The position numbers were made by a program, and so were the translations under genes. The notes beneath the pieces are model-generated. The model was not told the DNA's origin, ran no database searches, and was given only the letters and a program-made list of their open reading frames with translations. A stretch of 64,000 bases of DNA from Sphingopyxis sp. Lineage in GTDB: Bacteria > Pseudomonadota > Alphaproteobacteria > Sphingomonadales > Sphingomonadaceae. The number at the start of each line of letters is the position of its first letter. Positions within the stretch are counted from its first letter, which is position 1. Below are positions 46,622 through 64,000 of this stretch, piece by piece. The stretch is taken from assembly GCA_040079655.1 (NCBI GenBank), contig JBEBJX010000001.1, positions 14,060-78,059 of the forward strand. The letters are read 5' to 3'.

Positions 46622-47554
46622 CTATAACGCCCCTGGCACGCCGAGCATCCGCGCCTGCGCGCGCAGCCGCGCCTCTTGCCCAGGGTTGGCTGCCACCGCG
46701 CGGCGCAGCGCCTCGCCCGCCTGTGCGCTCTGCCCCAACGTCATCCGGCTGCGCATCAGCATGATCCAGCGGTCGGGCTGCGCGGGGTTGGCATCGAGCT
46801 TGGCCTGAAGGCTGTCGACCATCCCCTGCACCATCATATCCTGTTGCCCCTTGGGCAGCGCCGCCGCTTGCTGCATCTGGCCGCGTGTTGGGCCGGGGAT
46901 AGCGCGGGCGGCGACAGGTAGCTGCTCGGCGGTCAATTGCGGCTGGCGCACGGCGGCGAGGCGGCTTGCCACGTCGATATTGTTCCGTTCCCCAACTTGC
47001 TGAATGGTGCGGCGCAAGTCCGCCTCCCACGGCGCGCCTTGCGGGGTGTCGGCCAGCAAAGCCAGCCAGGCGGTGATTGCGCCCGCATGGTCGCCATCAA
47101 CATCGCGTTTGGCGGCAATGAAATAGCGCGCACGCGGATCATCCGCATCAAGCCCGACTGCCCGTTCAAAGGCCGCCATCGCATCAGCCGGTATTGGCGG
47201 GCCGACGCGCGGCGCGGCCATCACCAATGCCTCGCCAAGTCCCGACCACAGGCCAGCGACAGCGGGGGAAAGCGACGTCGCCTTGCGATAGGCGGCAACC
47301 GCACCGGCATAATCTTCGCTATCAAACCGCGCCTGCGCCAGATTGGCCCATGCTTCGCCGTTTTCAGGTTCGGCGACGGTGCGCGCCTCCAGCGCGGCAA
47401 TGCCTGCGCCAACAGGTGCTGCTGGTGCAGCAGCGGCGGTGTCATCACTCTGACCCGCCGAACGGCTCAACGCAAAGCCCAGCGCGCCGATCAAAGCGAC
47501 GCAGCCTAGCCCCAGCAGCAACCAACGGCCATTGCCTGCGGTTTCCTCCGTCAT
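46622..47554 (-). CDS. Membrane-anchored TPR protein resembling the periplasmic part of CcmI/CycH
   Basis: N-terminal TM helix, TPR helices (GEAWANLAQA, AYRKA, GLGEAL, RARYF), M.QGMVDSL..KL..NP....RWIML.RS C-terminal pattern. Confidence 0.65.
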   Translation of the reverse strand: MTEETAGNGRWLLLGLGCVALIGALGFALSRSAGQSDDTAAAAPAAPVGAGIAALEARTVAEPENGEAWANLAQARFDSEDYAGAVAAYRKATSLSPAVAGLWSGLGEALVMAAPRVGPPIPADAMAAFERAVGLDADDPRARYFIAAKRDVDGDHAGAITAWLALLADTPQGAPWEADLRRTIQQVGERNNIDVASRLAAVRQPQLTAEQLPVAARAIPGPTRGQMQQAAALPKGQQDMMVQGMVDSLQAKLDANPAQPDRWIMLMRSRMTLGQSAQAGEALRRAVAANPGQEARLRAQARMLGVPGAL

Positions 47555-47797
47555 GCCCACACCATCATCATCCGAATGCTCGATCTTGCTCACCACAATC
47601 CCTTTTCAAAAAGGCGCCAATAGTTTTGCCGCCATAATCTGACAATGCCACACATCACAGCGCCCTGAAAGAATAGACGCTATTCACGAGATGGGGGGTT
47701 GGAACAGCCGGATAAATCCCCTAAGCCCGTGACTCAGAGATGCCGTCAGAGCATCCATAGGGGTCGCGTAACCGTCTGTTTGGGGAGGGAGCGACAT

Positions 47798-49153: not shown

Positions 49154-49224
49154 GCAGGCCATAGAAAGTTAGGCGGACACGGCGGGGGTCGGAAACTATG
49201 ACGGATGCATGGCAAAGGGCGCGG

Positions 49225-50592
49225 ATGCGCATTAGCCTGTTTGGGGCGGCGGCGGCAATACTGCTGGCGGCGCTGGTCCTCGTCGCACCCGAAGCGCGCT
49301 CCAATGCTGCACAGGACGGCGCGCATCTTGGCGTTGCATCCTGTGCTGGATCAACCTGCCATGGCCGAATGCTGGGCGATGGGCCTGTGGTGCGACAGGA
49401 CGAGATCGCGCGATGGCAGGAGCCATCGACCCAAAGCGGTGCCCATTCGCGGGCCTATTCTGTGCTTTCCAATGCGCGTAGCCGCACCATCGCCCGCAAT
49501 CTGGGCATTGCCGACGCCGCCAGCTCCTCGACCTGCCTTGGTTGTCATTCGAGCGCCGCAGCAACCAGCGGCGGGGCATTTCGCTATCAATTGTCGGACG
49601 GCGTCAATTGCGAAAGCTGCCACGGCGCGTCATCTGGCTGGATTGCATCGCACTATGCCGGAACGTTGACTGGCGCGGCGCAGCATGATGATAATGTAAG
49701 GCGCGGGCTGCGGCGATTGGAAGACCCGGTGGTGCGCGCGGGGGTGTGCCTTGATTGCCATTTTGGCTCGGCAACGGACGGGCAATTTGTCACCCACCGC
49801 ATCATGGCGGCGGGGCACCCGCGCATCGCCTTTGAGCTCGATCTGTTTTCAACATTACAGATGCACCATGTTGAGGACGCCGACTATGCCCAGCGCAAAG
49901 GCAGTGTTGACCATGTGCGGATGTGGGCGGTGGGTCAGGCGATGGCGATCGAACGCTCTCTGTCGCTGTTTCAAAACGCCAATCGCGGCACCGATGGCGT
50001 GTTCCCCGAGTTTACTTTCTATGACTGCCATAGCTGTCATCGCCGGATATTCGACCAGGCACAGCCTAGCATAACCGCAGTCGGCAACCCAGCGCGGCCC
50101 ATTCCCCAAGGGATGCCGCCCTATAATGATGAAAATATGATCATGCTGTCGGCAGCGGCACGCGTGGCCGCACCCAGTTTGGCGACGCGTTTTGACGAAA
50201 AGGCGCGCGCTTTTCACGCGGCGATGACCCGCGACCGCGGGGCTGCGGTGGCGGCAGCACGCGAACTGATGGCAGCGGTGGGCGACGTGCGTAGCGCATT
50301 GGCGGGCACGAACTTTGGTGCCGGATCAGCACGCCAAATGGCCCAGGCGATTGCGGGAGAGGCGATCCGCGCCCGCTTCACCGATTATGAAGGGTCGGTG
50401 CAGGCGGTGATGGGGATTGATACATTATTGAATGCAATGATCAGCAACGGACAAGCGACAGTGGGATCGGCGGCGGGTATTCGTGGTGACATCAACCGCG
50501 CCTATGCGGCGGTGCGCGACCCCAATGCCTATCGCCCGCGTGATTTCCAATCCGCACTCGCCAGTGCCGTTCGCAGCATCGGTGCGCTGTGA
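49225..50592 (+). CDS. Periplasmic multiheme c-type cytochrome (cytochrome c554-like N-domain, 5 heme motifs)
   Basis: Signal peptide; CAGSTCH, CLGCH, CESCH, CLDCH, CHSCH; helical C-terminal domain; start 49198 or 49225. Confidence 0.85.
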   Translation: MRISLFGAAAAILLAALVLVAPEARSNAAQDGAHLGVASCAGSTCHGRMLGDGPVVRQDEIARWQEPSTQSGAHSRAYSVLSNARSRTIARNLGIADAASSSTCLGCHSSAAATSGGAFRYQLSDGVNCESCHGASSGWIASHYAGTLTGAAQHDDNVRRGLRRLEDPVVRAGVCLDCHFGSATDGQFVTHRIMAAGHPRIAFELDLFSTLQMHHVEDADYAQRKGSVDHVRMWAVGQAMAIERSLSLFQNANRGTDGVFPEFTFYDCHSCHRRIFDQAQPSITAVGNPARPIPQGMPPYNDENMIMLSAAARVAAPSLATRFDEKARAFHAAMTRDRGAAVAAARELMAAVGDVRSALAGTNFGAGSARQMAQAIAGEAIRARFTDYEGSVQAVMGIDTLLNAMISNGQATVGSAAGIRGDINRAYAAVRDPNAYRPRDFQSALASAVRSIGAL

Positions 50593-50682
50593 TGAAGCGA
50601 TGCCGCACAACCCAAAAGCGATTTGAAGTCAGATGGCACCGCCTGACGGCTCGCAAATCGCGGCAAGGCAAAGGAGTAGAGC

Positions 50683-52680
50683 ATGGTCTTTGATACAATC
50701 AAAGGACGTCATGCTCTAGGCTGGACAGCCTGTTTGGCAATGAGCCTGGCCGGATGCGGCAGCGGCGGCACTGGCGGCCCAGGCGGCGGATCGCCCTCGC
50801 CAACACCAACCCCAACACCGACCGGCATGGCCTTTGTGCTGCCCGCAGCCGAGGCGCTTAGCGTCTCCGATGTTGAGCGCATCATCGGCCAGGCGGTTAC
50901 CGAAGCCCAGGCGCGCGGGCAAAATGCGGTGATTGCGGTGGTTGATCGCCCCGGCAATGTGCTTGGCGTTTTCCGCATGACGGGCGCACCGCCAACCTCT
51001 GTGGTCGGCGCAGCGCCCAATGGCCAAAACCGCGATGCACAGGGCCAAACCATCCCATCCACCGCAGCAGCCATCGCCAAGGCGGTCACCGGCGCCTATC
51101 TGTCAAGCGGCGGCAATGCCTTTTCCACCCGCACCGCCAGCATGATTGTGCAACAGCATTTTCCGCCTGCGCCGGTCGCGGTGGGGCTTGAGAGCGGCCC
51201 GCTTTATGGTGTGCAATTCAGCTCGCTGCCCTGTTCTGACCTGTCGGCGCGCTATCGCGACGGCAACCTTGGGACGGGGCCGCTGATCGGGCCAAAGCGT
51301 TCGCCGCTTGGCCTGTCGGCGGATGCGGGCGGGCTGCCGCTCTATAAAAATGGCGTGCTGGTTGGCGGCATTGGCGTGATGTCCGATGGCGTCTATGGTT
51401 TTGACCCCGATGTCACCAATATCGACAATGACCCAGAGGAGTATAGCGCGCTGGCGGGAACACGCGGGTTCGAAGCACCCGTGGAAATCCGCGCCGACCG
51501 CATCCCCGTTGATGGCACGACATTGCGCTATTCGGATGCGCGCTATGACCAATTGACCACCAGCACCGCCCCCGCATTTGCAACGATTAACGGCACATTG
51601 GGGCAATTGATCGCAGTGCGCGGCTATTTTGGCGCTCCCGTCCCCGTTATCCAGGCGGGCGCGATTTACGGCACAGAAGCGTCGGGGCTGCGGCTCGCCA
51701 CGGCAGCAGAGTTTAGCCGCAGCGACGCGATGATCCTGAGCAATGGCGCGGGAACGGGGCGCTACCCGATACGCGGCGGCACCGATGCCGGCACCGTCGC
51801 CACACCGATGAGCGCCGCTGAAACGCGCGCGATATTGGAAGAGGCCTTTACCGTCATGGCGCGGGCGCGCGCGCAAATCCGCCGCCCATTGAACGCCCAG
51901 GCGCAGGTGACGATCAGTGTCGTTGACAGTTTCGGCGCGGTGTTGGGCATGGTGCGTTCGCCCGATGCGCCACTGTTTGGCATTGACGTCAGCCTGCAAA
52001 AGGCGCGCTCGGCAATGTTCCTGTCAAACAGCGTCGCCGCCGCCAATTTGCTGGCCGATCCTGACCCTGCGGTTCGTACCTATGTCGGCGCGGCGCGAAC
52101 CTTCCTCAATGACCCAGCCGCCCTCACCGGCACCGTCGCTTATTCCAATCGCGCGATCGGCCTGTTGCATCGCCCCTATTTTCCCGACGGCGAAGTCGGG
52201 CGCGCCAACGGCCCATTTTCCCGCGATATTGGCGGGTTTAACCCGCTATCGACCGGGCTGCAAAGCGCGATGACATTTCCCGACATCCTCAATCACCTGT
52301 TGTTTGTCCTCAATATCAACTCGGCTGATGTGAAACAGCGCTGCACCAACATTCCCGACAGCGCGCCCGGGCTTAATCGCTTGGCCAATGGCATGCAGAT
52401 TTTCCCCGGTGCGGTGCCCATTTATCGCGGAAATCAGCTGGTCGGCGGTATCGGCATATCGGGCGACGGCATCGACCAGGATGATATGGTGGCCTTCCTC
52501 GGCGTCGCCAATGCGTCCGCGCGGCTGGGCGGCAGCGTAACGCAAGCGCCGTTTGATCGCCGCGCTGATCGCTTGGTCGTTACGCTTCCCGATGCGCGGC
52601 AAGTGCGGCTGCGCTATGTCAATTGCCCGTTCACGCCGTTCCTCGATACCGACGCGCAAAATGTCTGTCAGGGCCTGTAA
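50683..52680 (+). CDS. Lipoprotein with tandem GlcG/HbpS (DUF336) heme-binding domains
   Basis: Lipobox LAGC plus PT linker; two copies of the pattern AVVD..G..L / KA..A / GG(L/V)P.Y..G.LVGGIG. Confidence 0.75.
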   Translation: MVFDTIKGRHALGWTACLAMSLAGCGSGGTGGPGGGSPSPTPTPTPTGMAFVLPAAEALSVSDVERIIGQAVTEAQARGQNAVIAVVDRPGNVLGVFRMTGAPPTSVVGAAPNGQNRDAQGQTIPSTAAAIAKAVTGAYLSSGGNAFSTRTASMIVQQHFPPAPVAVGLESGPLYGVQFSSLPCSDLSARYRDGNLGTGPLIGPKRSPLGLSADAGGLPLYKNGVLVGGIGVMSDGVYGFDPDVTNIDNDPEEYSALAGTRGFEAPVEIRADRIPVDGTTLRYSDARYDQLTTSTAPAFATINGTLGQLIAVRGYFGAPVPVIQAGAIYGTEASGLRLATAAEFSRSDAMILSNGAGTGRYPIRGGTDAGTVATPMSAAETRAILEEAFTVMARARAQIRRPLNAQAQVTISVVDSFGAVLGMVRSPDAPLFGIDVSLQKARSAMFLSNSVAAANLLADPDPAVRTYVGAARTFLNDPAALTGTVAYSNRAIGLLHRPYFPDGEVGRANGPFSRDIGGFNPLSTGLQSAMTFPDILNHLLFVLNINSADVKQRCTNIPDSAPGLNRLANGMQIFPGAVPIYRGNQLVGGIGISGDGIDQDDMVAFLGVANASARLGGSVTQAPFDRRADRLVVTLPDARQVRLRYVNCPFTPFLDTDAQNVCQGL

Positions 52681-52683
52681 CGG

Positions 52684-54633
52684 ATGAGCGTCACTTTCGC
52701 CTTTGCCCTGCCTTTGGTGGCTTCGGTGGTGCCCGCCACGACGACTGTCGAAACGGTGACGAACCCCGAAGAGAGCGAGAGCACGCCTGAGGCCGCGCCT
52801 GAAAACGCCGAGCAAGCCGAACCGTCGCCCCCGCCGCCGCCACCCGACTGGCAACGACGTATCGAGCCAACATTGTTGCAGGAAATCCTAGAAGGCCGCC
52901 GCCGCCCGGGCTATCAACCCGGCCTGCCAGAGGCGGTGACGCAGGAAAATGTCGGGGCAATCCGCGCCCTGCCGCCATCGGCATTTCCACAGGAGACATT
53001 GCCGATACCCGATCGCTGGCGGCTGATCACAGCGCTTTGCCCGGTGCAGAGCATCTTCACCGCGCTACAAAATGTCTGCCATTCCGCGCGCGACCCCTAT
53101 CATCAAAATCTGCTCAAGGGTGACAGACCCATCCCGCCCGAGGATTTCCCCAGCTTTTTGGGAATAGAGGGGCATGACTGGTTTTTAACCTTGTCGGCAA
53201 TTTCAGACACGGTGGTCGAGCCGCGCAGTTTCCCCATCCCGGTCGGCGTCCAAACGACAGAGCGGCCCGACAGCAACAATGTGTTCGGTCGCCCGACCAG
53301 CCTGGTCTTGTCACAAACATTCATTATGGGCGCGGCGCTGACCAAGGGGATGACCGCGTTCAAGCCACCCGATGTTGAATATCGCGTCGCGATTGCGTTC
53401 AACATGAATTATGTCGATGTGCCAGAGCGCCGCGTGCTGTTTGTCGAACCATCGCGTCCATCCCATCGGTTTGATTATTTTCTGGGCGTCCAGGAAGCCT
53501 TTATCGACAAGCATCTGGGCAATGATTCAGACCGCTATGATTTTCATTCGATCCGCGTCGGCATTCAGCCCTTTCAGACCGATTTTCGCGGCTTTCTGTT
53601 CAATGATAATCAGCTCGGTATCCGCCTGTTTGGCAACCGCGACAATAATCGCTTTCAATATAATCTGGCGGCATTTTGGCGGCTGGAAAAGGACACCAAT
53701 TCGGGCCTGAACGATGTCACCCAAACCCCGCGCAATGATTTTGTGCTCGCGGCCAATCTGTATCGTCAGGATTTGCCTATCCCCGGCCTGACCAGCCAAG
53801 TGACGCTTGTCTATAACCGCAACCGCGAAGGCGGCGACATCCATATCGACGACAATGGCTTTCCCATTCGCCCCGCGCTGTTCGGCACATTGCGCGGGCG
53901 CGATTATGATGTGTTTTACGCTGGTTACAACGCCGATGGTCATGTCGGCCGCATCAACCTGACAACCTCACTCTACGCGGCATTTGGCAAGGACCACAAC
54001 AACCCCATCACCGATCGGCCGGCGCGGATTGCCGGCTATTTCGCCGCCGCCGAAGCGAGTTATGACCATAATTGGATGCGCTTTCGCCTCTCGGCGCTCT
54101 ATGCCAGCGGCGACGGCAACCCCTATGACGATGTTGAGAGCGGGTTCGATGCCATTTCTGAAAACCCCCAGTTTGCGGGGGCCGATACCAGCTACTGGAT
54201 CCGCCAGGCTATCCCCTTTGCCGGCGGCGCGCGCGCGGTAACGGTCAATGGGCGTGGCGGGGTGTTAAACTCGCTGCGCTCATCCAAGGACGAAGGGCAA
54301 TCGAACTTCACCAACCCGGGAACGATATTGCTGGGGGTTGGCGGCGATTTCGACATCAGACCCGACACGCGCGTAACCGCCAACATCAACCATTTATGGT
54401 TCGAAAATACGCGGGTGATAGAGGTGCTGCGCAACCAAGGCGGCATTTCGCGCAACATTGGCTGGGACGTCTCGGTGTCGAGCATCTATCGCCCCAACAC
54501 CAACCAGAATATCGTGCTCAGACTGTCTGCCGCCGCGCTTATCCCCGGGCGCGGGTTCGACCAACTCTTTGCCAATAGCCCGCGTAGGGGGGCCTATTAT
54601 TCCATCCTCGCCAACGCAATATTGAGTTTTTGA
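52684..54633 (+). CDS. Predicted outer-membrane beta-barrel protein of unknown function
   Basis: Signal-like N-terminus, Pro/Glu-rich linker, many amphipathic aromatic-ended strands, C-terminal YYSILANAILSF ending in Phe. Confidence 0.6.
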   Translation: MSVTFAFALPLVASVVPATTTVETVTNPEESESTPEAAPENAEQAEPSPPPPPPDWQRRIEPTLLQEILEGRRRPGYQPGLPEAVTQENVGAIRALPPSAFPQETLPIPDRWRLITALCPVQSIFTALQNVCHSARDPYHQNLLKGDRPIPPEDFPSFLGIEGHDWFLTLSAISDTVVEPRSFPIPVGVQTTERPDSNNVFGRPTSLVLSQTFIMGAALTKGMTAFKPPDVEYRVAIAFNMNYVDVPERRVLFVEPSRPSHRFDYFLGVQEAFIDKHLGNDSDRYDFHSIRVGIQPFQTDFRGFLFNDNQLGIRLFGNRDNNRFQYNLAAFWRLEKDTNSGLNDVTQTPRNDFVLAANLYRQDLPIPGLTSQVTLVYNRNREGGDIHIDDNGFPIRPALFGTLRGRDYDVFYAGYNADGHVGRINLTTSLYAAFGKDHNNPITDRPARIAGYFAAAEASYDHNWMRFRLSALYASGDGNPYDDVESGFDAISENPQFAGADTSYWIRQAIPFAGGARAVTVNGRGGVLNSLRSSKDEGQSNFTNPGTILLGVGGDFDIRPDTRVTANINHLWFENTRVIEVLRNQGGISRNIGWDVSVSSIYRPNTNQNIVLRLSAAALIPGRGFDQLFANSPRRGAYYSILANAILSF

Positions 54634-57600
54634 TGGTGATGCAACGCCCCGCCTTTCTCCGTTTCGCTACGTTCATGCTGGCTCTGCTCACCATGCTCAG
54701 CGCGCTCGCCTTTCTCACGCCATCGGCCATCGCCAATGAGGGCGAGGTGCCCGTTGAGCGGCATTATGTCACCGCCCCAAATGCCCCCGCAAACCAGATA
54801 GGCGCAACATTCGAGGAACAGCGTAGCGCAGTGATGGCCAAATCCGAAGGGTGTTTCAGCTGCCATGTCCGCACCGACGAGCCATCGATGCACGCCAGCC
54901 CAGCGGTGCAGCTGGGCTGTGTCGATTGCCACGGCGGCGACGCAAGCGTTCGCGGTGACCCGGCGCTTGGCTATGCCCACCCCGACAATATGGCCGCACT
55001 AACCCGTGCCCATGTGCTGCCGCGTTACCCGCGCAGCTGGAACTGGCCTTCATCGGCCAACCCGCAGCGCAGCTACGCCCTGCTTAACCGCGAAGCACCT
55101 GAGTTCCTCCGCTTCGTCAACCCCGCTGATTATCGCGTTGCCCGCGAAGCATGCGGCGCGTGCCACCTCGCTATCATCGAAAATGCCGAGCGCTCGATCA
55201 TGTCAACCGGCGCGATGCTGTGGGGCGGGGCGGCCTATAACAATGGCATCGTCCCGTTCAAATCCTATTTGATGGGCGAAAGCTATACCCGCGAGGGCGA
55301 GCCAGCCTGCATCACCAGCCCATCGACCATATTGCCGCGCGAACAATGGGCCCGCGCCTGTGCCGACATCACCATGCCGGCGAGCGAAATATTGACGCCC
55401 GAAGAGCAAGCGCGCGGTGCACTGTCGCGCATGTACCCGCTGCCCAGCTGGACCGTGATCCCCCCGGGCGATGTGTTCCGCGTATTTGAACGCGGCGGAC
55501 GCAGCATCAACCCGGTGTTCCCAGAGATTGGCCTGCCCAATTCAACCGGGCAGATCCAGCGGCTTGACGAGCCTGGCCGCCCCGATCTGCGCCAGTCCAA
55601 TCGCGGGCCCGGCACTGGGCTTCGTGTTGCCATTCCGGTGCTCAACATCCACAAAACGCGGCTCAACGACCCGTTCATGTGGTTTATGGGCACTAATGAC
55701 CAACAAGGTGATTATCGTTCATCGGGATGTTCGGGTTGCCATGTTGTTTATGCCAATGACCGCGAGCCGCGCCACAGCAGCGTCTATGCCCAATATGGCC
55801 GCGACGGCCAGACAGCGACAGTTGACCCGACCATTTCCGGCCTGATGCAGCGCGCGCCTGTTCACGGGGAGAGTGGGCATGGCGAAGCGGGGCATGGTGA
55901 GAGCAGTAGCGGAGATGACGCACATGCCGAGGACGCACATGCCGAGAGCGGCCATGGCGGCCTGATTCCGGCTGGGTCACCGACACGCCGCGAGAGTGGC
56001 CACCCGATCCGCCACGCCTTCACCCGCGCCATCCCGACCGCGCAGTGCATGAACTGTCACATGCACCAGCCCAATGTATTCGTGAACACTTACCTTGGCT
56101 ATACGATGTGGGATTATGAAGCCGATGCGCCGCACATGTGGCCTGGCCCTGAAAATGAAGCGCCGCGCCCAGCCGGCATGAGCGACGAAGATTATAACCG
56201 CATCTATCGCAGCCAGCATTACCCGACCGCTACCGAGGTTCGCGCGATCAATGACCGCAATCCAGAGGGCGCGGCAACGCACGGCCTATGGGGCGATGTC
56301 GAGTTTCTGCGCGATGTGTACAGCCTCAACCCTGATCTCTCGGACACGCAATTTGCCGACTATCACGGCCATGGCTGGAATTTTCGCGCGGTGCTGCGCC
56401 GCGACCGCGAGGGCAATCTGCTTGATGCCGAGGGGCAAATCGTGCCGCCCGATGACCCCGAGCGCTGGCGCCGCAACGGCGAGGGCGAGTTTGCGCCGAT
56501 CGGCGTCAACCCTGGGCGCACCGTCCATTTGATGGACATCCACGCCGAAAAGGGAATGCAATGCGCCGATTGCCACTTCAGCCAAGACAGCCATGGCAAC
56601 GGGTTTATCTATGGCGAAGTTGCCAACGCGATCGAGATTGGTTGCAAGGATTGCCACGGCACTGCTGATGCCTACCCAACCCTGCTCACCTCCGGCCCTG
56701 CGGCACCGCCCGAAGGGACCAACCTCGCGCTGCTCCGCAATCCCGATGGCCAGCGGCGCTTTGAATGGGTCGATAACCCCGACGGCAGCCGCAAGCTTTT
56801 GCAGCGGTCGATCACCGACCCCGCTGTAACCTGGGAAGTCAGCCTAGTCCGCGACACGGTGACGCTCGGCAACCCGCGGTTCAACGCGCGCGCCGCGCGT
56901 GCCAAGCTTATGGGCCGTGTCAGCGAAGACGGGCAAACAAGCTGGGGCACCGGCGTCGCCTCCGATAATCGCGCCCATGGCGACGACCGCATGGCCTGTT
57001 TCACCTGCCATTTGTCATGGACCACCAGCTGCGGCGGCTGCCACTTGCCGATAGAAGCCAATTGGCTGACTAATGAGCATCATTTTGAAGGCGAAACGTC
57101 CCGTAATTTTGCGACCTATAACCCACAGGTCGCGCGCGACGAGATGTTCCAGCTGGGCATCCACCAAACCACCAAGGGCAATATCATCGCACCGGTACGC
57201 TCTTCATCGGCGCTGGTATTGTCTTCGACCAATATCAACCGCGAGCGTATCTATGTTCAGCAACCGCCGATCAGCGCGATCGGCTATTCGTCACAGGCCT
57301 TTGCGCCGCATTTCCCGCACACTGTGCGCACCACCGAAACCAAGACATGTAGCGACTGTCATTTGTCCGAAGACGAAGACAATAATGCCATCATGTCGCA
57401 GCTGCTGTTGCTCGGCACCAACTATGTCAATTTTGTCGGGCTCAACAATTTTGCGGGGCTGGAGGGCGGGTTCCAGGCGACGCGCGTCACCGAATGGGAT
57501 GAGCCACAGGCAGTCATCGGTAGTTATCTCCATCGCTATGCCTACCCCGATTTCTATCGCCTGCATGTCGACCAAAATGGCCGCGAGCTGCGCAATTGGG

Positions 57601-58832
57601 TGCGCGGTGCAATCCTTAACGATCATTTGTCGGGCGAGGGCGGCACCGAAGAGTTCCAAAATGTCGTGCAGGGCACCCGCGATCCGGTTTCCTGCCTGCA
57701 AATGCGCGGCGAATATATGTTCGTCGCCGAAGGACGCGGCGGCTTTGCGGTTTATGATATTGCGTCGGTCGCCAACAAGGGCTTTTCAGACCGCATCATT
57801 ACCGCGCCATTTTCTCCGCTCGGTCACGATCAACGCGTCGAAAGTCGCAACGCAACCTGCATGGCGCTCCCCACCAATCAGGCAATAGCGCCAACGCGCA
57901 GCACCGAAACATTGCGCACCATCAACCAGGAACAGCCGTTCCACCCTATCTATAATTATGCGGTGGTGACCGACGCCGAAGAGGGGTTGATCCTTGTCGA
58001 CGTCAATACATTTGCCGATGGCGAGCTGCGCAACAACAACTTGCGCCGCGCGCTCACCTGGAACCCCGATGGCGTGTTGAACGGCGCGCAGCACATCACG
58101 CTGGCGGGGTCGGTTGCCTATATTACCACTGCGCATGGGCTGGCGGTGGTTGATCTGGCCGATCCCATGAGCCCGCGCCTTACCGCCGACATTGCGATGG
58201 ATGGTGCCAAGGCGAGCACGATCCAGTTCCGCTATCTGTGGGTCAGCGACGCGAGCGGTATCAGGTTGTTCGACACCACCGATATGCGCGTTCCGGTGGC
58301 GGTGCCAAGCGGCGACATTGCGCTGCCGAGCGCGCAGCGCATGTATATCGCGCGCACCTACCTCTATGTTGCGGCGGGGGATCAGGGGCTGGTTATCATG
58401 AATGTGACGCGGCCACGCGCACCCGCTGAGCTGATGCGTTACACGGCGGGCGGCACGCTCAATGATGCGCGCGACGTGGTGGTCGCATCGACCAATGCCA
58501 GCCTGTTTGCCTATGTCGCCGATGGCCGCAACGGGGTGAAGATATTGCAACTGACCAGCCCCGCCAGTCAGCCCAATTTCTATGGCTTCAGCCCGCGCCC
58601 GGTGCCCGAACTCATTGCCTGGGCGCGCACGCCGACCCCGGCGGTTGCGATGTCCAAGGGGCTGGACCGTGACCGCGCGGTTGATGAAACCGGCGGGCAG
58701 ATTGCTGTGTTCGGGCGGCTTGGCTCGCGGCCATTTACACGGCCGGAGATGGAACGGCTGTTCCGCACGCCGGGTGGACTCTTATACAAGGTCAGCGACC
58801 GAACCGATATGGCGCGGTGGGCGGGGAACTAG
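54633..58832 (+). CDS. Large secreted decaheme c-type cytochrome with C-terminal LVIVD-repeat beta-propeller
   Basis: Signal peptide; ten CxxCH motifs (CFSCH, CVDCH, CGACH, CSGCH, CMNCH, CADCH, CKDCH, CFTCH, CGGCH, CSDCH); repeats such as GLILVDV, GLAVVDL, GIRLFD, GLVIMNV; TGATG coupling to the barrel gene. Confidence 0.85.
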   Translation: MVMQRPAFLRFATFMLALLTMLSALAFLTPSAIANEGEVPVERHYVTAPNAPANQIGATFEEQRSAVMAKSEGCFSCHVRTDEPSMHASPAVQLGCVDCHGGDASVRGDPALGYAHPDNMAALTRAHVLPRYPRSWNWPSSANPQRSYALLNREAPEFLRFVNPADYRVAREACGACHLAIIENAERSIMSTGAMLWGGAAYNNGIVPFKSYLMGESYTREGEPACITSPSTILPREQWARACADITMPASEILTPEEQARGALSRMYPLPSWTVIPPGDVFRVFERGGRSINPVFPEIGLPNSTGQIQRLDEPGRPDLRQSNRGPGTGLRVAIPVLNIHKTRLNDPFMWFMGTNDQQGDYRSSGCSGCHVVYANDREPRHSSVYAQYGRDGQTATVDPTISGLMQRAPVHGESGHGEAGHGESSSGDDAHAEDAHAESGHGGLIPAGSPTRRESGHPIRHAFTRAIPTAQCMNCHMHQPNVFVNTYLGYTMWDYEADAPHMWPGPENEAPRPAGMSDEDYNRIYRSQHYPTATEVRAINDRNPEGAATHGLWGDVEFLRDVYSLNPDLSDTQFADYHGHGWNFRAVLRRDREGNLLDAEGQIVPPDDPERWRRNGEGEFAPIGVNPGRTVHLMDIHAEKGMQCADCHFSQDSHGNGFIYGEVANAIEIGCKDCHGTADAYPTLLTSGPAAPPEGTNLALLRNPDGQRRFEWVDNPDGSRKLLQRSITDPAVTWEVSLVRDTVTLGNPRFNARAARAKLMGRVSEDGQTSWGTGVASDNRAHGDDRMACFTCHLSWTTSCGGCHLPIEANWLTNEHHFEGETSRNFATYNPQVARDEMFQLGIHQTTKGNIIAPVRSSSALVLSSTNINRERIYVQQPPISAIGYSSQAFAPHFPHTVRTTETKTCSDCHLSEDEDNNAIMSQLLLLGTNYVNFVGLNNFAGLEGGFQATRVTEWDEPQAVIGSYLHRYAYPDFYRLHVDQNGRELRNWVRGAILNDHLSGEGGTEEFQNVVQGTRDPVSCLQMRGEYMFVAEGRGGFAVYDIASVANKGFSDRIITAPFSPLGHDQRVESRNATCMALPTNQAIAPTRSTETLRTINQEQPFHPIYNYAVVTDAEEGLILVDVNTFADGELRNNNLRRALTWNPDGVLNGAQHITLAGSVAYITTAHGLAVVDLADPMSPRLTADIAMDGAKASTIQFRYLWVSDASGIRLFDTTDMRVPVAVPSGDIALPSAQRMYIARTYLYVAAGDQGLVIMNVTRPRAPAELMRYTAGGTLNDARDVVVASTNASLFAYVADGRNGVKILQLTSPASQPNFYGFSPRPVPELIAWARTPTPAVAMSKGLDRDRAVDETGGQIAVFGRLGSRPFTRPEMERLFRTPGGLLYKVSDRTDMARWAGN

Positions 58833-58848
58833 AGTCCCATCACACCAC

Positions 58849-58946
58849 CGTCATTGCGAGGAGGCATTTGCCGACGAAGCAATCCAGCGCGGTGCACGCC
58901 TGACTCTGGATTGCTTCCCCCAGCCTTCACTGGGGTCGCAATGACG
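58849..58946. repeat. 98-bp nested palindromic REP-like element between convergent genes
   Basis: Outer cgtcattgcga/tcgcaatgacg, inner gaagcaatccag/ctggattgcttc, extra ccccag/ctgggg hairpin; resembles the gtcattgcga...gcaatgac elements common in alphaproteobacteria. Confidence 0.85.
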
Positions 58947-58955
58947 CCTCCCGCG

Positions 58956-59417
58956 CTATGGCTCCACCGACTCTACGCTCACTGGAAAATTGACCGAGCG
59001 CGCGATGAAGCAAAGTCGATGCGCCTCATCATGCAGCGCGTCCGCCTCTGCGCGGCGCGCCTCGTCGCTGATCGTCACGGCAGGGTGCAGCGTCACGGAC
59101 ACAAATTGCCCGCCGCCATCCGCACCCTCGGTCATCACGCCGACAGGGTCGTCGGTGTATGCGGTGACGTTGATCCCCGCCACCGCCGCCAGGTGCAGAT
59201 ACCACAGCTGGTGACAGGCGCTGATTGACGCGACCAGCAATTCCTCGGGGTTCCACGCGCCTGCGTCTCCGCGAAAGGCGGGGTCGGATGACCCGGCGAT
59301 GGCGGGCTTGCCGCTCGCGGACAGAATATGCTCGCGGCCATAGGCGCGGTAGTCGGTGGTGCCGCCCCCATGATTGCCGGTCCATTCAAGGTGGAGTGTA
59401 TAATGATGGTCGCGCAT
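58956..59417 (-). CDS. OsmC/Ohr-family protein
   Basis: GSSDPAFRGD...WNPEELL.A..SACHQLWYL and C-terminal AH..CFIA.SVNFPV. Confidence 0.85.
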   Translation of the reverse strand: MRDHHYTLHLEWTGNHGGGTTDYRAYGREHILSASGKPAIAGSSDPAFRGDAGAWNPEELLVASISACHQLWYLHLAAVAGINVTAYTDDPVGVMTEGADGGGQFVSVTLHPAVTISDEARRAEADALHDEAHRLCFIARSVNFPVSVESVEP

Positions 59418-59448
59418 CGCGGCACTGTACACCGTGCCGCGCCGCTTA

Positions 59449-60309
59449 TCAAGCGCTGGAAACCCCCGGCCGCTCGCCAATCAGATGCTCGACCAGGTCG
59501 ATCATAGCGTGGTTATATTGCGCTAAAACAAGTCCTTGTGATGCGCTGTCAAAATGGCTGACCATTTGCGCGCCATTCCAGTGGTGGAGCGCATAGCCTG
59601 GGTCGTCGGCAATGATCATCGCGCGGTCGTCGGTCGCCCTCGTGTCAATCGGGCGCAGGTCGAGCGCGACCTGTGGCGAGGTCGATGAGCAAACGATTGC
59701 AGTCAATCCATGCCATTGCACGCTCATTGACCGATGCAAATGGCCGCAAATTAGCCCGCAAAGTTGCGGCGCATCGGCGATCGCCTCTGTGAAGCGCTGC
59801 ACCCATGGCTCGCTGGGGTCGGTGGTCATCCAGTCAATCCCGCTATCGAACGGCGGATGGTGCATGACAATATAGGTTGGAAGGTGAGGATGCTCGGCCA
59901 GCCGCGATTTCAGCCACGCGGCGCGCACTTCGCAAAAAGCGCCGCCGTGCCGCCCCTCTTCCAATGTGTCGATAACGATCAGGCGGAAATCTGCGAACAG
60001 CCGATCATATTGGATGAAGCCGCTGCGATCAGCGAAATCGGGGAAAACCTCGGTAAAGGCGGTGCGGACATCGTGATTGCCGACGCACGGAAACACGGGC
60101 CACGGATAAGCCGCAAAGGCATTGCGCAACCGCACATAGCTCGCCGTATCCCCCTGATCGGTCAAATCGCCCGTCGCCAACATCAGATCAGGCGCATTTG
60201 GGCCGACTGCCAGCCTTTCCAGCACCATGTCCAGCCGCTGCTGATTATATTCATCGGGATTCCCAGAATCAAAACCGATGTGAATATCGGTGATCTGGGC
60301 GATCAACAT
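59449..60309 (-). CDS. Metallophosphoesterase, CpdA/Icc-like cyclic-nucleotide phosphodiesterase
   Basis: QITDIH, TGDLTD, GNHD, MHHPP, GHLH calcineurin-like metal motifs; GAGAGG RBS. Confidence 0.85.
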   Translation of the reverse strand: MLIAQITDIHIGFDSGNPDEYNQQRLDMVLERLAVGPNAPDLMLATGDLTDQGDTASYVRLRNAFAAYPWPVFPCVGNHDVRTAFTEVFPDFADRSGFIQYDRLFADFRLIVIDTLEEGRHGGAFCEVRAAWLKSRLAEHPHLPTYIVMHHPPFDSGIDWMTTDPSEPWVQRFTEAIADAPQLCGLICGHLHRSMSVQWHGLTAIVCSSTSPQVALDLRPIDTRATDDRAMIIADDPGYALHHWNGAQMVSHFDSASQGLVLAQYNHAMIDLVEHLIGERPGVSSA

Positions 60310-60348
60310 AGGCTGCTCTTTCCTCTCAATGGGCTATTATCCACCCTA

Positions 60349-62205
60349 CTACCGTTGCCTATCAGAGTCTGTGATGGAAATCACTCGGCCCGATTGCTCT
60401 CGGCCTGCGGGCCCTCGGCCTCCGCGCTGTCGACGGTCTGACGATTGCGGCGGTTGCCACGGGGCATCGGCCCGCTCACCTGCATGATATTCATGGCACG
60501 AAGCGCAAGGGCTTTCGACATCCGCGCCGGAATTTTCACCGCCATGACAATCGCGGCACACCTTGATTTCAGGAATCAGCAATTGATTGGCGGAGGATGA
60601 TCGCGCGGCCAGATGGCAGGTGCTGCATGGCTCATCATTATGCGGGCGATGATCGAACCAGCCATGCTCCAGATAGCGCGCGGTCTGGGTCACGGGCAGA
60701 ACGCGCCAATTGCTGTTTCCGGCGGCGGGCGCAAATATGGTGTGGCAATCATAACAAGCCCCACCGCGTGAAAATACGGCGCGCACCGCATCATTGGCGC
60801 GTGTCGGACGCACCGTGGTTTCGCGGAAATAGATGTTATAGATTTGCCCCTGGGCAAATTCACCCGGCCTGCGCCGCGCCATCCCGCCAAGGCTGATCGG
60901 CCGTGTTGGCGGGGTAGACCGATAATAGGCATAAAGGTCAGCCACCACCTGGGCCGGCTCACCATGGCGCAATGTCCGCGTCACCCCGCCCACGCTTTCG
61001 AACGACAGGCTGTGGCATCCCTGGCAATCGCGCTCCATATCAACGGGTTCAAAACGCACGCCATCCGCCGTTGGTCTATGGCAATTGGCACAATCCAGCC
61101 CCGACTGTTGGCCAGCGTTGAGGCGCAAATGTCGCGCCATGCGCGCCACCCCGCCCGCTTGTTGCAGATGCATATTATGCGGGAACTTCAGGCCGTTGAT
61201 GTCGGTTGTCTGTGGTGTGAGGGTGGTACGGACAAAACGTGGGGCCGCGCCCGGTGCCACTTGAACCCGTGGGCGAAACTGCGGGTGCGAAGTGCCAAAA
61301 TCACCCGCATCGCCGATCCGCGTATCGGTTAACCGGCTCGACATGCCGTTGTGACAATCGGCGCAAAATGCCTGAGCGGTGGCGGGCATCGGGCCTGCAC
61401 CCTCATGCTCATTATGACAATCAACGCATCGGCCCTGTGTCCGGTTGAACGCCGCACCAATGCGATTTAATACGCCGCGGAACATCCCCGGCTCGCCGCG
61501 CGCAGCCAATTGCCGATTGATCGGCGCATGGTCATGCGCATCATCATGGCAGCTTTTACATGCCTGATCGGTCACCGCGACAAAGGCATCTGTGTGGCAC
61601 GACTGGCAATCGCGAGCCAGCGCGGCGTGCACGCTGCTCAACGGCCCCGATGACCAGCTTTGGTCAGCATGAAAGGTTGCTGGGCGCTCCTCAATTCCGC
61701 GCCACTGCATATAGGCGAATATCGGCGCAATCAGGAAAGCGCCTATGACGAGCAGCGCAAAGGCCCAGGCCGAAAGCCGCCGCCCGGGCAATTTTCCTCG
61801 CAATGAAAATGCGCGCCCCTCATCACGATCAAGCGCCGAATGGCTGAGCTCATCTGTCCGTGTTACGGTCAATGTCACGCGGGAATCAGCGGTTTCGCTA
61901 TCCAGACCAACGGTGATACGATGCCCGCCAAAGCGCAGTTCAGCGCCATCACCAGCATCAATCGAGGCGCGGGTGACCGTGCGACCATCCCATTCAAATC
62001 CAAGGCCGGTTGTCGCCTGAACCTCGATATGGCGGCCGTCATTGGAGGTGATCGTGGCGTGATGAGGGATCACCGCCAGATCGGCGAGGTGGATGTCGCT
62101 CGACGCATCACGGCCGACCGCAATTTCACGCTGCACGAGCGGCGTCGAACGGATGATTTCGCGGCCAGCGCTGGTCACCGAAACCCGGCGGAGAAGGAAG
62201 CTCAT
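60349..62205 (-). CDS. FHA-like domain + TM helix + periplasmic decaheme cytochrome c
   Basis: N-terminal VGRDASSDIHL...HHA FHA-like pattern, one TM helix, ten CxxCH (CQSCH, CKSCH, CVDCH, CADCH, CANCH, CQGCH, CYDCH, CSTCH, CRDCH, CASCH); ATG 62205. Confidence 0.85.
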   Translation of the reverse strand: MSFLLRRVSVTSAGREIIRSTPLVQREIAVGRDASSDIHLADLAVIPHHATITSNDGRHIEVQATTGLGFEWDGRTVTRASIDAGDGAELRFGGHRITVGLDSETADSRVTLTVTRTDELSHSALDRDEGRAFSLRGKLPGRRLSAWAFALLVIGAFLIAPIFAYMQWRGIEERPATFHADQSWSSGPLSSVHAALARDCQSCHTDAFVAVTDQACKSCHDDAHDHAPINRQLAARGEPGMFRGVLNRIGAAFNRTQGRCVDCHNEHEGAGPMPATAQAFCADCHNGMSSRLTDTRIGDAGDFGTSHPQFRPRVQVAPGAAPRFVRTTLTPQTTDINGLKFPHNMHLQQAGGVARMARHLRLNAGQQSGLDCANCHRPTADGVRFEPVDMERDCQGCHSLSFESVGGVTRTLRHGEPAQVVADLYAYYRSTPPTRPISLGGMARRRPGEFAQGQIYNIYFRETTVRPTRANDAVRAVFSRGGACYDCHTIFAPAAGNSNWRVLPVTQTARYLEHGWFDHRPHNDEPCSTCHLAARSSSANQLLIPEIKVCRDCHGGENSGADVESPCASCHEYHAGERADAPWQPPQSSDRRQRGGRGPAGREQSGRVISITDSDRQR

Positions 62206-62216
62206 TTTACCCGCCC

Positions 62217-63101
62217 CTACCAGTAGAAAAAAACGCTGATGATGTGTGCCGTCAGCGCCGCGATCAACGCAAATGTCATCGGCACATGGGCGTAAAGCCA
62301 TATTTCGAGCAGCGACTTAAGCTTGAGATGTCGGCGCAACCGCCCCAATGCCGCAAGCTTGCGGGTCAATAAAATATCCACTTTTTCCATTGGGTCGTGG
62401 CCACTATCGTGCTGTGGCCCAGTCTGTGCGCGCACCAGCTCTAGCGCCCTCGCCGTGTCACACCGCCGCATCCGGCCCGTGAGGCGCGACCATAGCGAGC
62501 CGGCAAAAGGGTCCTGATCGAGCGACAGGCGGACAATCTGGGCATCGGCAGGGTCGAGCGGTTGCGCGGCCGCATGAAGTTGTCGATCAAGGCCGCGAAT
62601 ATCCTCGAGCATCTGTGCCTGGGTCCGCTCATCGCGATTGTTCGAGAGCAAGGCTGGCAAGCTGCTGTAAACGGTGATGCCCCAAATCCCCGACGCAATG
62701 ACCAGCATCATCAGGCTCCAGGCCAGCGTATGGACATTCCAGCCCAGTTGAAACCCCGTGTGCAATGTGCCGATGACGACAAGCGACAGCCCCAGATAGA
62801 CATGGGCCGATGTCCATGACTTTAACGACCATGCGCCGCGCGTCATCGCCCGTTTGCGCACACCGAGCAGCGTCAGCCACAGGATCAACAGCGCGCCGAT
62901 CGTTCCAAGCGTATAGCCATACCAACTGCCACCATTATGCCGCGGGGCAACATCGACCAGCCAGTAACTGACGAAGCAGATGAGGATGATGGCGACCGCA
63001 ATTTTGAGCCACAAGAAACCAGCATGCGAGAGAAAGCCCGTGTGCAGGCTCGATCGCTGGCGTTCGCCCTGTGCGGCGCGGCGTTTGAAACGACTAGCCA
63101 T
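62217..63101 (-). CDS. Inner-membrane protein, predicted di-heme cytochrome b (ferric-reductase-like)
   Basis: About 5 TM helices; His pairs H100/H114 and H272/H286, each 14 residues apart within a TM helix; TAATG coupling. Confidence 0.6.
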   Translation of the reverse strand: MASRFKRRAAQGERQRSSLHTGFLSHAGFLWLKIAVAIILICFVSYWLVDVAPRHNGGSWYGYTLGTIGALLILWLTLLGVRKRAMTRGAWSLKSWTSAHVYLGLSLVVIGTLHTGFQLGWNVHTLAWSLMMLVIASGIWGITVYSSLPALLSNNRDERTQAQMLEDIRGLDRQLHAAAQPLDPADAQIVRLSLDQDPFAGSLWSRLTGRMRRCDTARALELVRAQTGPQHDSGHDPMEKVDILLTRKLAALGRLRRHLKLKSLLEIWLYAHVPMTFALIAALTAHIISVFFYW

Positions 63102-64000
63102 TAATCGTCATCCTGCGTCAGGCGCGCGACGGACAAAAATGCCTCTGGCGAAACGCGGATGGCCGCCCCCGTCGGGCAGGCACGCACGCACGCTGGCCCG
63201 CCCGATATTCCAGAGCACATGTCGCATTTGATCGCCTTTTTCGGCGTTTCAACCCCCTTTGGCCCATGTGCTTTTGACCATTTTTTACTCGGCTCGCCAG
63301 GTCCAGGCCCAAGCCCGAGGAACAGCCAGGACAATAGGCCTGGTTTCTTTGGCGGCGCCGCGTCCATGCGAATGACGCCATAGGGGCAGTATCGCTGGCA
63401 ATTGCCACAGCCGATGCAGGTGTCGTCTATGAACACTTCGCCATCTGGGCCGCGGTGGATGGCATTGGGCGGACAGTCAGACATGCAATGCGGATGCTCA
63501 CAATGTCGACAAGAGGTTGGCACATGAATATGCGCGAAAGTTGCGCCGGCCTCACGATCGAGGCGCGATAATCCTTCATGGCTGTCGGCACAGGCTTTTT
63601 CGCAATTATCGCACGCCACGCACAATGTCTCGTCGATGAGCAACACATCGGTCGCTTCGCCAATCCCTTTGTCCACCAGGAATTTGGCGGTTTCAGAATA
63701 GAGCTCAACCGCACTGGAAAAGCTCGCTTTGCGCCCTTCGATAAAATTATTCAGGTCTTGGCGGGCGGCCATATCACCGCGCAAACGCGCCGCCAAATCG
63801 GGCTTGGTTGCCAATATTTTACGGAATGCGGCGCCCGACACCTTGACCACTTCGGATTTGACAGCAGCCTTGACCGTAGCCGTGCGCGCACCGCCGGCAA
63901 TAACCGCCATTTCCCCGACATAGGATCCCGCTGGCAGATAAGATAAAAACACCGGCTTGCCGCCAATCTGTTTTTCAACAACCATTGACCCCTGGCGAAC
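63101..64000 (-). CDS. Cyclic-nucleotide-binding domain fused to a DmsB/NrfC-type 4x[4Fe-4S] domain; 5' part lies beyond the window
   Basis: G.YVGEMA...GARTATVKA cNMP motif; CVACDNCEKAC, CRHCEHPHCMSDCP, CIGCGNCQRYCP, CDMC...PACVRACP; frame open to the window end. Confidence 0.85.
   Translation of the reverse strand, partial: VRQGSMVVEKQIGGKPVFLSYLPAGSYVGEMAVIAGGARTATVKAAVKSEVVKVSGAAFRKILATKPDLAARLRGDMAARQDLNNFIEGRKASFSSAVELYSETAKFLVDKGIGEATDVLLIDETLCVACDNCEKACADSHEGLSRLDREAGATFAHIHVPTSCRHCEHPHCMSDCPPNAIHRGPDGEVFIDDTCIGCGNCQRYCPYGVIRMDAAPPKKPGLLSWLFLGLGPGPGEPSKKWSKAHGPKGVETPKKAIKCDMCSGISGGPACVRACPTGAAIRVSPEAFLSVARLTQDDD

Follow-up and report, generated by a model that had tools for sequence, protein, structure and literature searches.

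The window analysed here is a stretch of 64,000 nucleotides (nt) of Sphingopyxis sp. DNA, located within contig C1 of an assembly of 2.3 Mb (184 contigs). Between positions 49198 and 64000 it contains nine open reading frames (ORFs) in two convergent gene groups (Table 1), at the coordinates given in a preliminary description, which had taken both groups together for an undescribed, envelope-spanning electron conduit linked to cyclic nucleotides. Domains were assigned from Pfam matches and from NCBIfam equivalog scores relative to their cut-offs. Besides the nine ORFs, the 25 c-type haem motifs, the four Fe-S motifs, and the two His-x13-His pairs of that description were all present. By motif count, the c-haem motifs comprise four CxxCH and one CX4CH in P0001 and ten motifs each in P0004 and P0007. 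The tight gene junctions (1-11 bp) that had been claimed were also seen: P0003 and P0004 overlap in a TGATG, P0010 and P0008 in a TAATG, and 11 nt separate P0008 from P0007 if the latter begins at M33. These three junctions point to translational coupling. We consider it probable that about seven of the genes encode one conserved electron chain that is driven by NAD(P)H, gated by cyclic nucleoside monophosphates (cNMP), bypasses quinones, and runs outward to end at the outer membrane.

Table 1. Features of the locus, with positions in the window. P0009 denotes the window part of the gene cut by the window edge, P0010 its full-length product; aa, amino acids; ptd, a named operon discussed in the text.
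Feature	Position	Strand	Assignment	ptd counterpart
P0001	49198..50592	+	Periplasmic pentahaem cytochrome, 464 aa; Pfam Cytochrome_C554	
P0002	50683..52680	+	Lipoprotein, 665 aa; lipobox LAGC; GlcG/HbpS-like (PF03928)	
P0003	52684..54633	+	Outer-membrane beta-barrel, 649 aa; AlphaFold model; C-terminal Phe	
P0004	54630..58832	+	Secreted decahaem protein with C-terminal LVIVD beta-propeller, 1400 aa; 10 CxxCH; Pfam LVIVD	
P0010 (C-terminal 299 aa, P0009)	63101..64000	-	Pfam cNMP_binding and Fer4	
P0008	62217..63101	-	Membrane protein, 294 aa; five predicted transmembrane helices, N-in topology	PtdF
P0007	60349..62205 (M33 likely start; longest ORF to 62301)	-	FHA, transmembrane helix, decahaem; 10 CxxCH	PtdG
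P0006	59449..60309	-	Class III metallophosphoesterase; Pfam Metallophos, SpdA/CpdA-related	
OsmC-family protein	58956..59480	-	Pfam OsmC; adjacent, outside the conserved system	
CcmI/CycH-like protein	46622..47596	-	TPR membrane protein; Pfam TPR_CcmH_CycH (E 4e-13)	

That the two gene groups form one system, as had been supposed, is borne out by their conservation. A profile of P0004 retrieved 80 related loci with 10-kb flanks, mostly from Sphingomonadales and some from Caulobacterales and Hyphococcus; the nearest was found in a Sphingopyxis metagenome-assembled genome (MAG; 92% identity). The order pentahaem, HbpS-like, barrel, and decahaem-LVIVD was kept in 58 of the 59 loci whose upstream DNA was long enough. 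The triplet encoding the flavin adenine dinucleotide (FAD)-cNMP-FeS protein P0010, the membrane protein P0008, and the FHA-decahaem P0007 lay at most 10 kb from P0004 in 44 loci, (i) convergent and downstream in 40, (ii) co-directional and downstream in two, and (iii) upstream in two. Twelve further loci were fetched from other alphaproteobacterial families, ten with P0004 (54-59% identity) and two without it (L089 and L090). All ten loci with P0004 consist of a single co-directional cluster with the order FAD-cNMP-FeS, membrane protein, FHA-decahaem, a small periplasmic ORF (in eight), HbpS-like, barrel, and decahaem-LVIVD; a P0001-like gene follows convergently downstream in five, which are those with the downstream flank retrieved. 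Since the genes form a single operon in other families, the convergent layout seen here would be a derived rearrangement. Five Caulobacterales loci (L059, L061, L064, L065, and L071) share the split convergent layout and have 3-7 kb extra between the phosphodiesterase and FHA-decahaem genes, which hints at lateral transfer or at shared ancestry of the rearranged form.

Co-occurrence was assessed in an even draw of 301 genomes from the class. P0004 was detected in 14 genomes and P0007 in 16; all 14 genomes with P0004 also have P0007, compared with two of the 287 others (Fisher exact p = 3e-22, for genomes that span 10 families but are phylogenetically non-independent). It might be argued that the two operons are unrelated neighbours, since they are convergent and separately transcribed here and lie more than 10 kb apart in 16 of the 60 informative loci. 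Yet all 16 of these genomes have an FHA-decahaem homologue elsewhere, and the complete co-occurrence of P0004 with P0007 and the single operon of other families leave chance proximity with next to no plausibility.

The two sampled genomes with P0007 but no P0004 (L089 and L090) retain the core together with a P0001-like gene. L090 has no outer module. L089, which represents marine Rhodospirillaceae MAGs, encodes a 641-aa pentahaem protein with faint similarity to NrfA and a 538-aa protein without a family. Their gene content suggests a modular system, composed of a fixed inner core and an exchangeable outer module; the inner core would comprise the flavin/cNMP/Fe-S protein, the membrane protein, the FHA-decahaem, and the pentahaem. 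Of 14 other species sampled from the same family, 6 have the FHA-decahaem, as against none of 66 species from nine other families of the order. Throughout the class, the system with P0004 occurs in 10 families (nine beyond its own) and the core alone in two more, and distant relatives of P0007 (24-34% identity) were detected in three further families of the phylum.

The first gene of the minus-strand group had been noted as cut by the window edge. Reading on in the contig gave an 816-aa protein (P0010, C1:77160-79610), whose gene extends about 1.55 kb past the window and which carries at its N-terminus the flavin/NAD(P)H domain that the preliminary description had suggested looking for upstream. 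This domain matches Pyr_redox_2/3 and is TrxR/YpdA-like, without the redox CxxC. It is followed by two cNMP-binding domains and then by an Fe-S module with four Cys clusters, two of them canonical (CxxCxxCxxxC), the other two being CRHCEHPHCMSDCP and CDMC-x7-CVRACP. Among 52 homologues, conservation reaches at least 95% for the Fe-S cysteines, the GxGxxG motifs, and, in both cNMP cassettes, the G-E...R-x-A residues. P0010 shares with DmsB, NrfC, and HybA the four Cys motifs for 4x[4Fe-4S], but its NCBIfam equivalog scores are far below cut-off and it has no twin-arginine (Tat) signal. As no signal peptide is present, P0010 is assigned to the cytoplasm. Given the position of its two cNMP domains, between the flavin and Fe-S modules, ligand binding could gate intramolecular electron transfer, as the conserved cassette residues suggest; the phosphodiesterase gene next door and the class III cyclase domains encoded in this genome would fit such a gate. 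The gene upstream of P0010 encodes an unrelated arginyl/leucyl-tRNA protein transferase.

P0008 contains a His-x13-His pair in its third transmembrane helix (H100/H114) and another in the fifth (H272/H286), with the helix order taken from a hydropathy scan. None of the four histidines varies among 27 homologues, the most distant of which share 33% identity, and H124 is invariant as well. This geometry would place two b haems one above the other within the membrane, an arrangement known from cytochrome b and from ferric-reductase-domain proteins and in agreement with the two b haems predicted earlier; P0008 is thus a predicted di-haem b transmembrane carrier. In P0007, a cytoplasmic FHA-like domain is followed by one transmembrane helix (residues 174-200) and a periplasmic decahaem domain. 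Its ten CxxCH motifs are 100% conserved in 49 homologues, and 9-10 additional histidines are invariant, as is typical of an electron wire with bis-His haems. No match to P0007 or P0004 was obtained in a sequence search of the PDB. The proposed succession of Fe-S clusters, di-haem b, and decahaem agrees with the predicted topology of these proteins.

The pentahaem cytochrome P0001 has four CxxCH motifs and one CX4CH motif (CAGSTCH), and the C-terminal half of the protein is helical. All five motifs, including CX4CH, are 100% conserved in 60 homologues. Searching the PDB with the P0001 sequence returned cytochrome c554 alone (E 0.008). An NAD(P)-glutamate dehydrogenase gene (47699-49153, plus strand) ends 44 nt before P0001, and the two are paired in 19 related loci. 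Co-transcription is possible, and the link may be functional, with the dehydrogenase as a source of NAD(P)H, or fortuitous.

Among the proteins of the outer module, P0002 was found to have a lipobox and three HbpS-like stretches (PF03928, E 5.5e-25) together with a Pro/Thr linker, consistent with the tandem GlcG/HbpS lipoprotein of the preliminary description. P0003 had no Pfam match. It was modelled with AlphaFold2 from an alignment of 30 sequences, at moderate confidence (mean predicted local distance difference test score (pLDDT) 68.7, predicted template-modelling score (pTM) 0.69); the model consists of about 18 long strands (residues 166-647), with the N-terminal ~165 aa at low confidence. 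Foldseek placed AlgE first (E 9e-13, template-modelling score on target 0.54-0.60), followed by the 18-strand MOMP and OccD/OprD porins, and there was no MtrB-type barrel among the top 50 hits. AlgE is thus the best structural match of the model, but P0003 differs from it in sequence (10-12% identity), has no Pfam Alginate_exp match, and has an extra N-terminal region of 165 aa; neighbour clustering revealed no polysaccharide genes near the locus. In P0004, the ten CxxCH motifs lie within residues 75-911 and the LVIVD repeats begin after residue ~1020. Homologues of P0004 number more than 7800 at 90% clustering; the best 120 share 66-92% identity and are unnamed or generically named.

What the data show directly are the gene content, the cofactor motifs with their conservation, the topology, the co-occurrence, and the synteny. 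From these features, we propose the following path, for which we infer the direction of flow, the protein contacts, the gating by cNMP, the location of P0004, and the acceptor: (i) the FAD in the TrxR/YpdA-like domain of P0010 would be reduced by NAD(P)H; (ii) electrons would pass through the four [4Fe-4S] clusters of P0010, with the two cNMP domains gating the transfer and, in this lineage, the adjacent phosphodiesterase resetting the cNMP signal; (iii) the two stacked b haems of P0008 would carry them across the inner membrane without quinones, with H100 and H272 as ligands on the cytoplasmic side and H114 and H286 on the periplasmic side; (iv) the membrane-anchored bis-His decahaem P0007 would accept them, its cytoplasmic FHA-like domain probably docking P0010; (v) the pentahaem P0001 would shuttle them over the periplasm; and (vi) P0002, P0003, and P0004 would form a terminal reductase at the outer membrane. 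The attachment of c-type haem is periplasmic, as established for Ccm, and NAD(P)H, with a potential of about -320 mV, would act as donor to the haems. We favour outward flow because the potential of NAD(P)H is low, the membrane potential favours this direction, and no subunit that reacts with quinones or couples energy was recognised. With NAD(P)H as the donor and quinones bypassed, the chain would be a non-respiratory, NOX-like outward reductase and not an energy-conserving respiratory chain.

The last step is the weakest of the proposed path, and several results weigh against the chain as a whole. P0003 models as an 18-strand AlgE/OprD-like porin and not as an MtrB-type sheath. It is too small to be grouped with the MtrB-type cytochrome sheaths, so the barrel is not necessarily the way by which electrons leave the periplasm, and the continuous path across the outer membrane that had been inferred earlier finds no support in this model. 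For residues 1-1010 of P0004, AlphaFold2 gave an unusable model (23-sequence alignment, mean pLDDT 39.5, pTM 0.30). P0008 remained below every Pfam threshold, the best score being that of Ni_hydr_CYTB (22.6 against 30.1 bits). The FHA match of P0007 is borderline (21.5 bits); the domain is degenerate and keeps only G63, R64, and H81, and its role is more likely that of a scaffold than of a phosphothreonine reader. The system is patchy even within its family, which suggests an accessory role, and it has apparently been gained and lost readily. An Rfam search of the window and of L001 yielded neither a riboswitch nor any other RNA family. Finally, boxes resembling those of FNR/FixK, CRP, Fur, Irr-ICE, RirA, and OxyR showed no real enrichment upstream of the P0010, P0001, and P0006 homologues, and k-mer footprinting gave no real signal. 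Two candidate signals upstream of the phosphodiesterase gene, TGA-N9-TCA (31 of 49) and a CRP-like one, were rejected as artefacts, as both lie inside scanned coding sequence; the first codons of the gene itself (ATGCTGATCGCGCAGATCACC, encoding MLIAQIT) contain TGA-N9-TCA.

Possibly, although we hold this to be the less probable arrangement, the same inner chain serves a periplasmic reductase of a soluble substrate, so that P0004 is periplasmic and nothing is reduced outside the cell. The substrate might be an Fe(III) chelate, a metalloid oxyanion, or another oxidant, which would enter, or whose product would leave, through the AlgE-like porin. The modelled barrel has the size of a substrate channel, and the signal peptide of P0004 is of the ordinary kind, without a lipobox. 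The low haem density of P0004 (ten haems in ~900 aa) and its very high conservation look more like those of an enzyme than of a wire, and it weakly resembles ExtM, ExtN, and ExtO of a porin-linked selenite/tellurite cluster. On the other hand, LVIVD repeats are typical of cell-surface proteins according to the Pfam description, neither a catalytic signature nor a metal site could be recognised, and the similarity to ExtM is far from the cut-off. P0004 may instead be exposed at the cell surface by some route other than those seen here. An assignment of P0004 as ExtM itself was rejected (NF040943, 82.3 bits against a cut-off of 800).

The outward chain ending at the outer membrane, which we prefer, would be controlled by cNMP, and the phosphodiesterase described as a further component bears on this point. 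P0006 clearly has the Metallophos fold, and its scores for SpdA (124 bits against a cut-off of 400) and CpdA (79 against 225) are low. Its gene adjoins that of the FHA-decahaem in most loci of Sphingomonadaceae and Caulobacterales but does not occur in any of the 12 loci fetched from other families. The claimed link thus holds in these two groups and not beyond them, and P0006 appears, from its distribution, to be a lineage-specific companion of the core. Together with the FHA and two cNMP domains, this class III phosphodiesterase could be taken as evidence for a redox-sensing or signalling device, in which the haem chain informs the cytoplasm of the redox state in the periplasm or outside the cell, and FHA, cNMP, and phosphodiesterase provide the output. 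The HbpS-like nature of P0002 would agree with such a function, as HbpS is part of a redox-sensing system in Streptomyces. We regard a sensor as improbable, however: 25 c haems, four Fe-S clusters, and a flavin dehydrogenase module exceed the needs of a sensor, no conserved kinase, transcription factor, or cyclase that could act as output is encoded nearby, the phosphodiesterase is missing from loci of other families, and the phosphothreonine-binding residues of the FHA domain are degenerate. Neighbour clustering of 93 loci likewise detected no linked cyclase, regulator, TonB receptor, or secretion gene; the only linked genes that it revealed were one for a CcmI-like TPR protein and, in other families, one for a periplasmic protein of ~150 aa.

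In public sources, homologues of the system's proteins bear generic names or none. The closest described system is the ptdABCDEFG operon, which was named in silico and whose function is 'completely unknown' according to its authors (bioRxiv 10.1101/2023.11.21.568154). It encodes the pentahaem PtdA, the porin PtdB, the FAD/NAD(P) oxidoreductase PtdC, the tetrahaem PtdD, the cNMP/4Fe-4S protein PtdE, the transmembrane ferric-reductase-like PtdF, and the decahaem PtdG, and was detected in marine Alpha- and Gammaproteobacteria as well as in Nitrospirales, Planctomycetes, and further groups; transcripts of ptdA, ptdB, and the gene that follows were observed in an oxygen-deficient zone (bioRxiv 10.1101/2023.11.21.568154). 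PtdA is assigned to the NrfA COG and has a C-terminal beta-sandwich, PtdC is likened to flavohaemoprotein, and accessions such as MBT5131319-25 are given in Table S7 of that preprint (bioRxiv 10.1101/2023.11.21.568154). By architecture only, the core described here resembles PtdC/E, PtdF, PtdG, and PtdD, and P0001 probably corresponds to the 'PtdD tetrahaem'. L089, which we call ptd-like by architecture and host taxon and not by matching accessions, has homologues of P0010 (49% identity), P0008 (39%), P0007 (28%, E 1e-63), and P0001 (36%).

As its core matches ptd, the system is not wholly undescribed. Three features appear to set it apart. First, the PtdA/PtdB outer module is absent and is replaced by the HbpS-like lipoprotein, the AlgE-like barrel, and the decahaem-LVIVD protein; the PtdA-like and PtdB-like proteins of L089 showed no significant similarity to P0004 and P0003 by BLASTP. 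Second, the flavin, cNMP, and Fe-S modules are fused in one 816-aa chain, and the fold of PtdC may differ. Third, a phosphodiesterase is attached; in addition, the genes are arranged in two convergent operons. No paper on the HbpS-like/barrel/decahaem-LVIVD module was found in the literature, and related searches gave only the ptd preprint. The claim of novelty therefore survives for the outer module, whereas a core of matching architecture had already been named.

With the Mtr, Pio, and Mto systems, the locus shares multihaem cytochromes beside an outer-membrane barrel, decahaems, and an envelope-spanning logic. Their MtrB/PioB barrel has 26-28 strands, whereas the model of P0003 has about 18, and P0003 has no PF11854 match. 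No decahaem of the MtrA/DmsE family was identified (TIGR03508, 21.7 bits for P0007 and 17.5 for P0001 against 192), nor was a CymA/NapC quinol dehydrogenase, the donor here being presumably NAD(P)H via the flavin/Fe-S protein. That none of the proteins looks like MtrA/B or CymA had been noted from the outset, and the results for barrel type, MtrA family, and quinol dehydrogenase place the locus outside the Mtr/Pio/Mto family. Pio and Mto work inward, and the cofactors found here are reversible in principle, so a chain that supplies NAD(P)+ with electrons from outside, for instance from Fe(II), Mn(II), or reduced humics, was also considered. It is very improbable: reduction of NAD(P)+ from such donors would be strongly uphill and against the membrane potential, neither an energy-coupling subunit nor a quinone link is encoded, and Sphingomonadales and Caulobacterales are generally known as aerobic heterotrophs.

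NOX and FRE enzymes, as well as MsrQ, follow the same principle as the outward chain proposed here, namely NAD(P)H, a flavin, two b haems on His pairs 13 residues apart in the third and fifth transmembrane helices, and an acceptor on the outside. P0008 differs from them in lacking a PF01794 match and in having five instead of six predicted transmembrane helices. Moreover, the dehydrogenase is a separate protein with a TrxR fold, four Fe-S clusters, and cNMP domains, and 25 c haems follow. The Geobacter extHIJKLMNOPQS cluster includes the porin-like ExtI and is involved in selenite/tellurite reduction (PMC5877670). It resembles the present locus in combining a small porin-like barrel with multihaem cytochromes, an Fe-S protein, and a cytochrome b, and segments of P0004 are weakly similar to ExtM/N/O; it differs in that ExtO is a Rieske protein, the chain is quinol-linked, and a flavin/cNMP module, an HbpS-like protein, and a propeller are missing.

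Several neighbouring genes were compared in the same set of loci. The OsmC-family protein had been counted among the components, a view that we reject, as it is not conserved: no OsmC homologue was found in any of the 92 related loci (80 at E<=1e-10 and 12 more at E<=1e-5). Its gene and the convergent P0004 gene are separated by a 123-nt gap (58833-58955) with nested inverted repeats, CGTCATTGCGA...TCGCAATGACG and GCAATCCAG...CTGGATTGC, which look like a bidirectional terminator or a REP-like element. Relatives of the CcmI/CycH-like gene recur in 34 related loci, mostly in divergent orientation to the P0010 homologue, whereas the gene lies upstream of the glutamate dehydrogenase gene here; the protein may be a dedicated apocytochrome chaperone or the cycH of the organism. 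The small ORF between the FHA-decahaem and HbpS-like genes, present in 8 of the 10 loci from other families (e.g. L083:11047-11493, minus strand), encodes a signal-peptide protein of ~150 aa that belongs to no Pfam family and has no homologue in this genome. Further upstream, an unrelated gene for a HerA/DUF87-type ATPase was noted (43152-44843, plus strand, Pfam E 8.6e-46).

Multihaem conduits through the cell envelope are a textbook feature of anaerobic metal respirers and iron oxidisers. The locus would add a 25-haem chain that is fed by NAD(P)H and equipped with cNMP-binding domains, in hosts (Sphingomonadales, Caulobacterales, and Hyphococcus) generally held to be aerobic heterotrophs. 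It is tempting, but speculative and in our view rather doubtful, to regard it as an envelope-wide bacterial counterpart of NOX/FRE, switched by cNMP, driven by NAD(P)H, and non-respiratory, through which aerobic heterotrophs would pass electrons to the cell surface. Such a delivery might serve to produce extracellular superoxide or to reduce Fe(III)/Mn oxides and so mobilise them for assimilation, activities for neither of which an established bacterial enzyme is known to us. If the chain reduces an acceptor at or outside the cell surface, extracellular electron transfer in oxic habitats would gain a route that is not respiratory, which would matter for the cycling of iron and manganese, for the formation of reactive oxygen, and for bioelectrochemistry. 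Direct allosteric gating of an electron wire by cNMP would be biochemically new, and a fixed inner core with exchangeable outer modules would offer a handle for comparative and genetic work.

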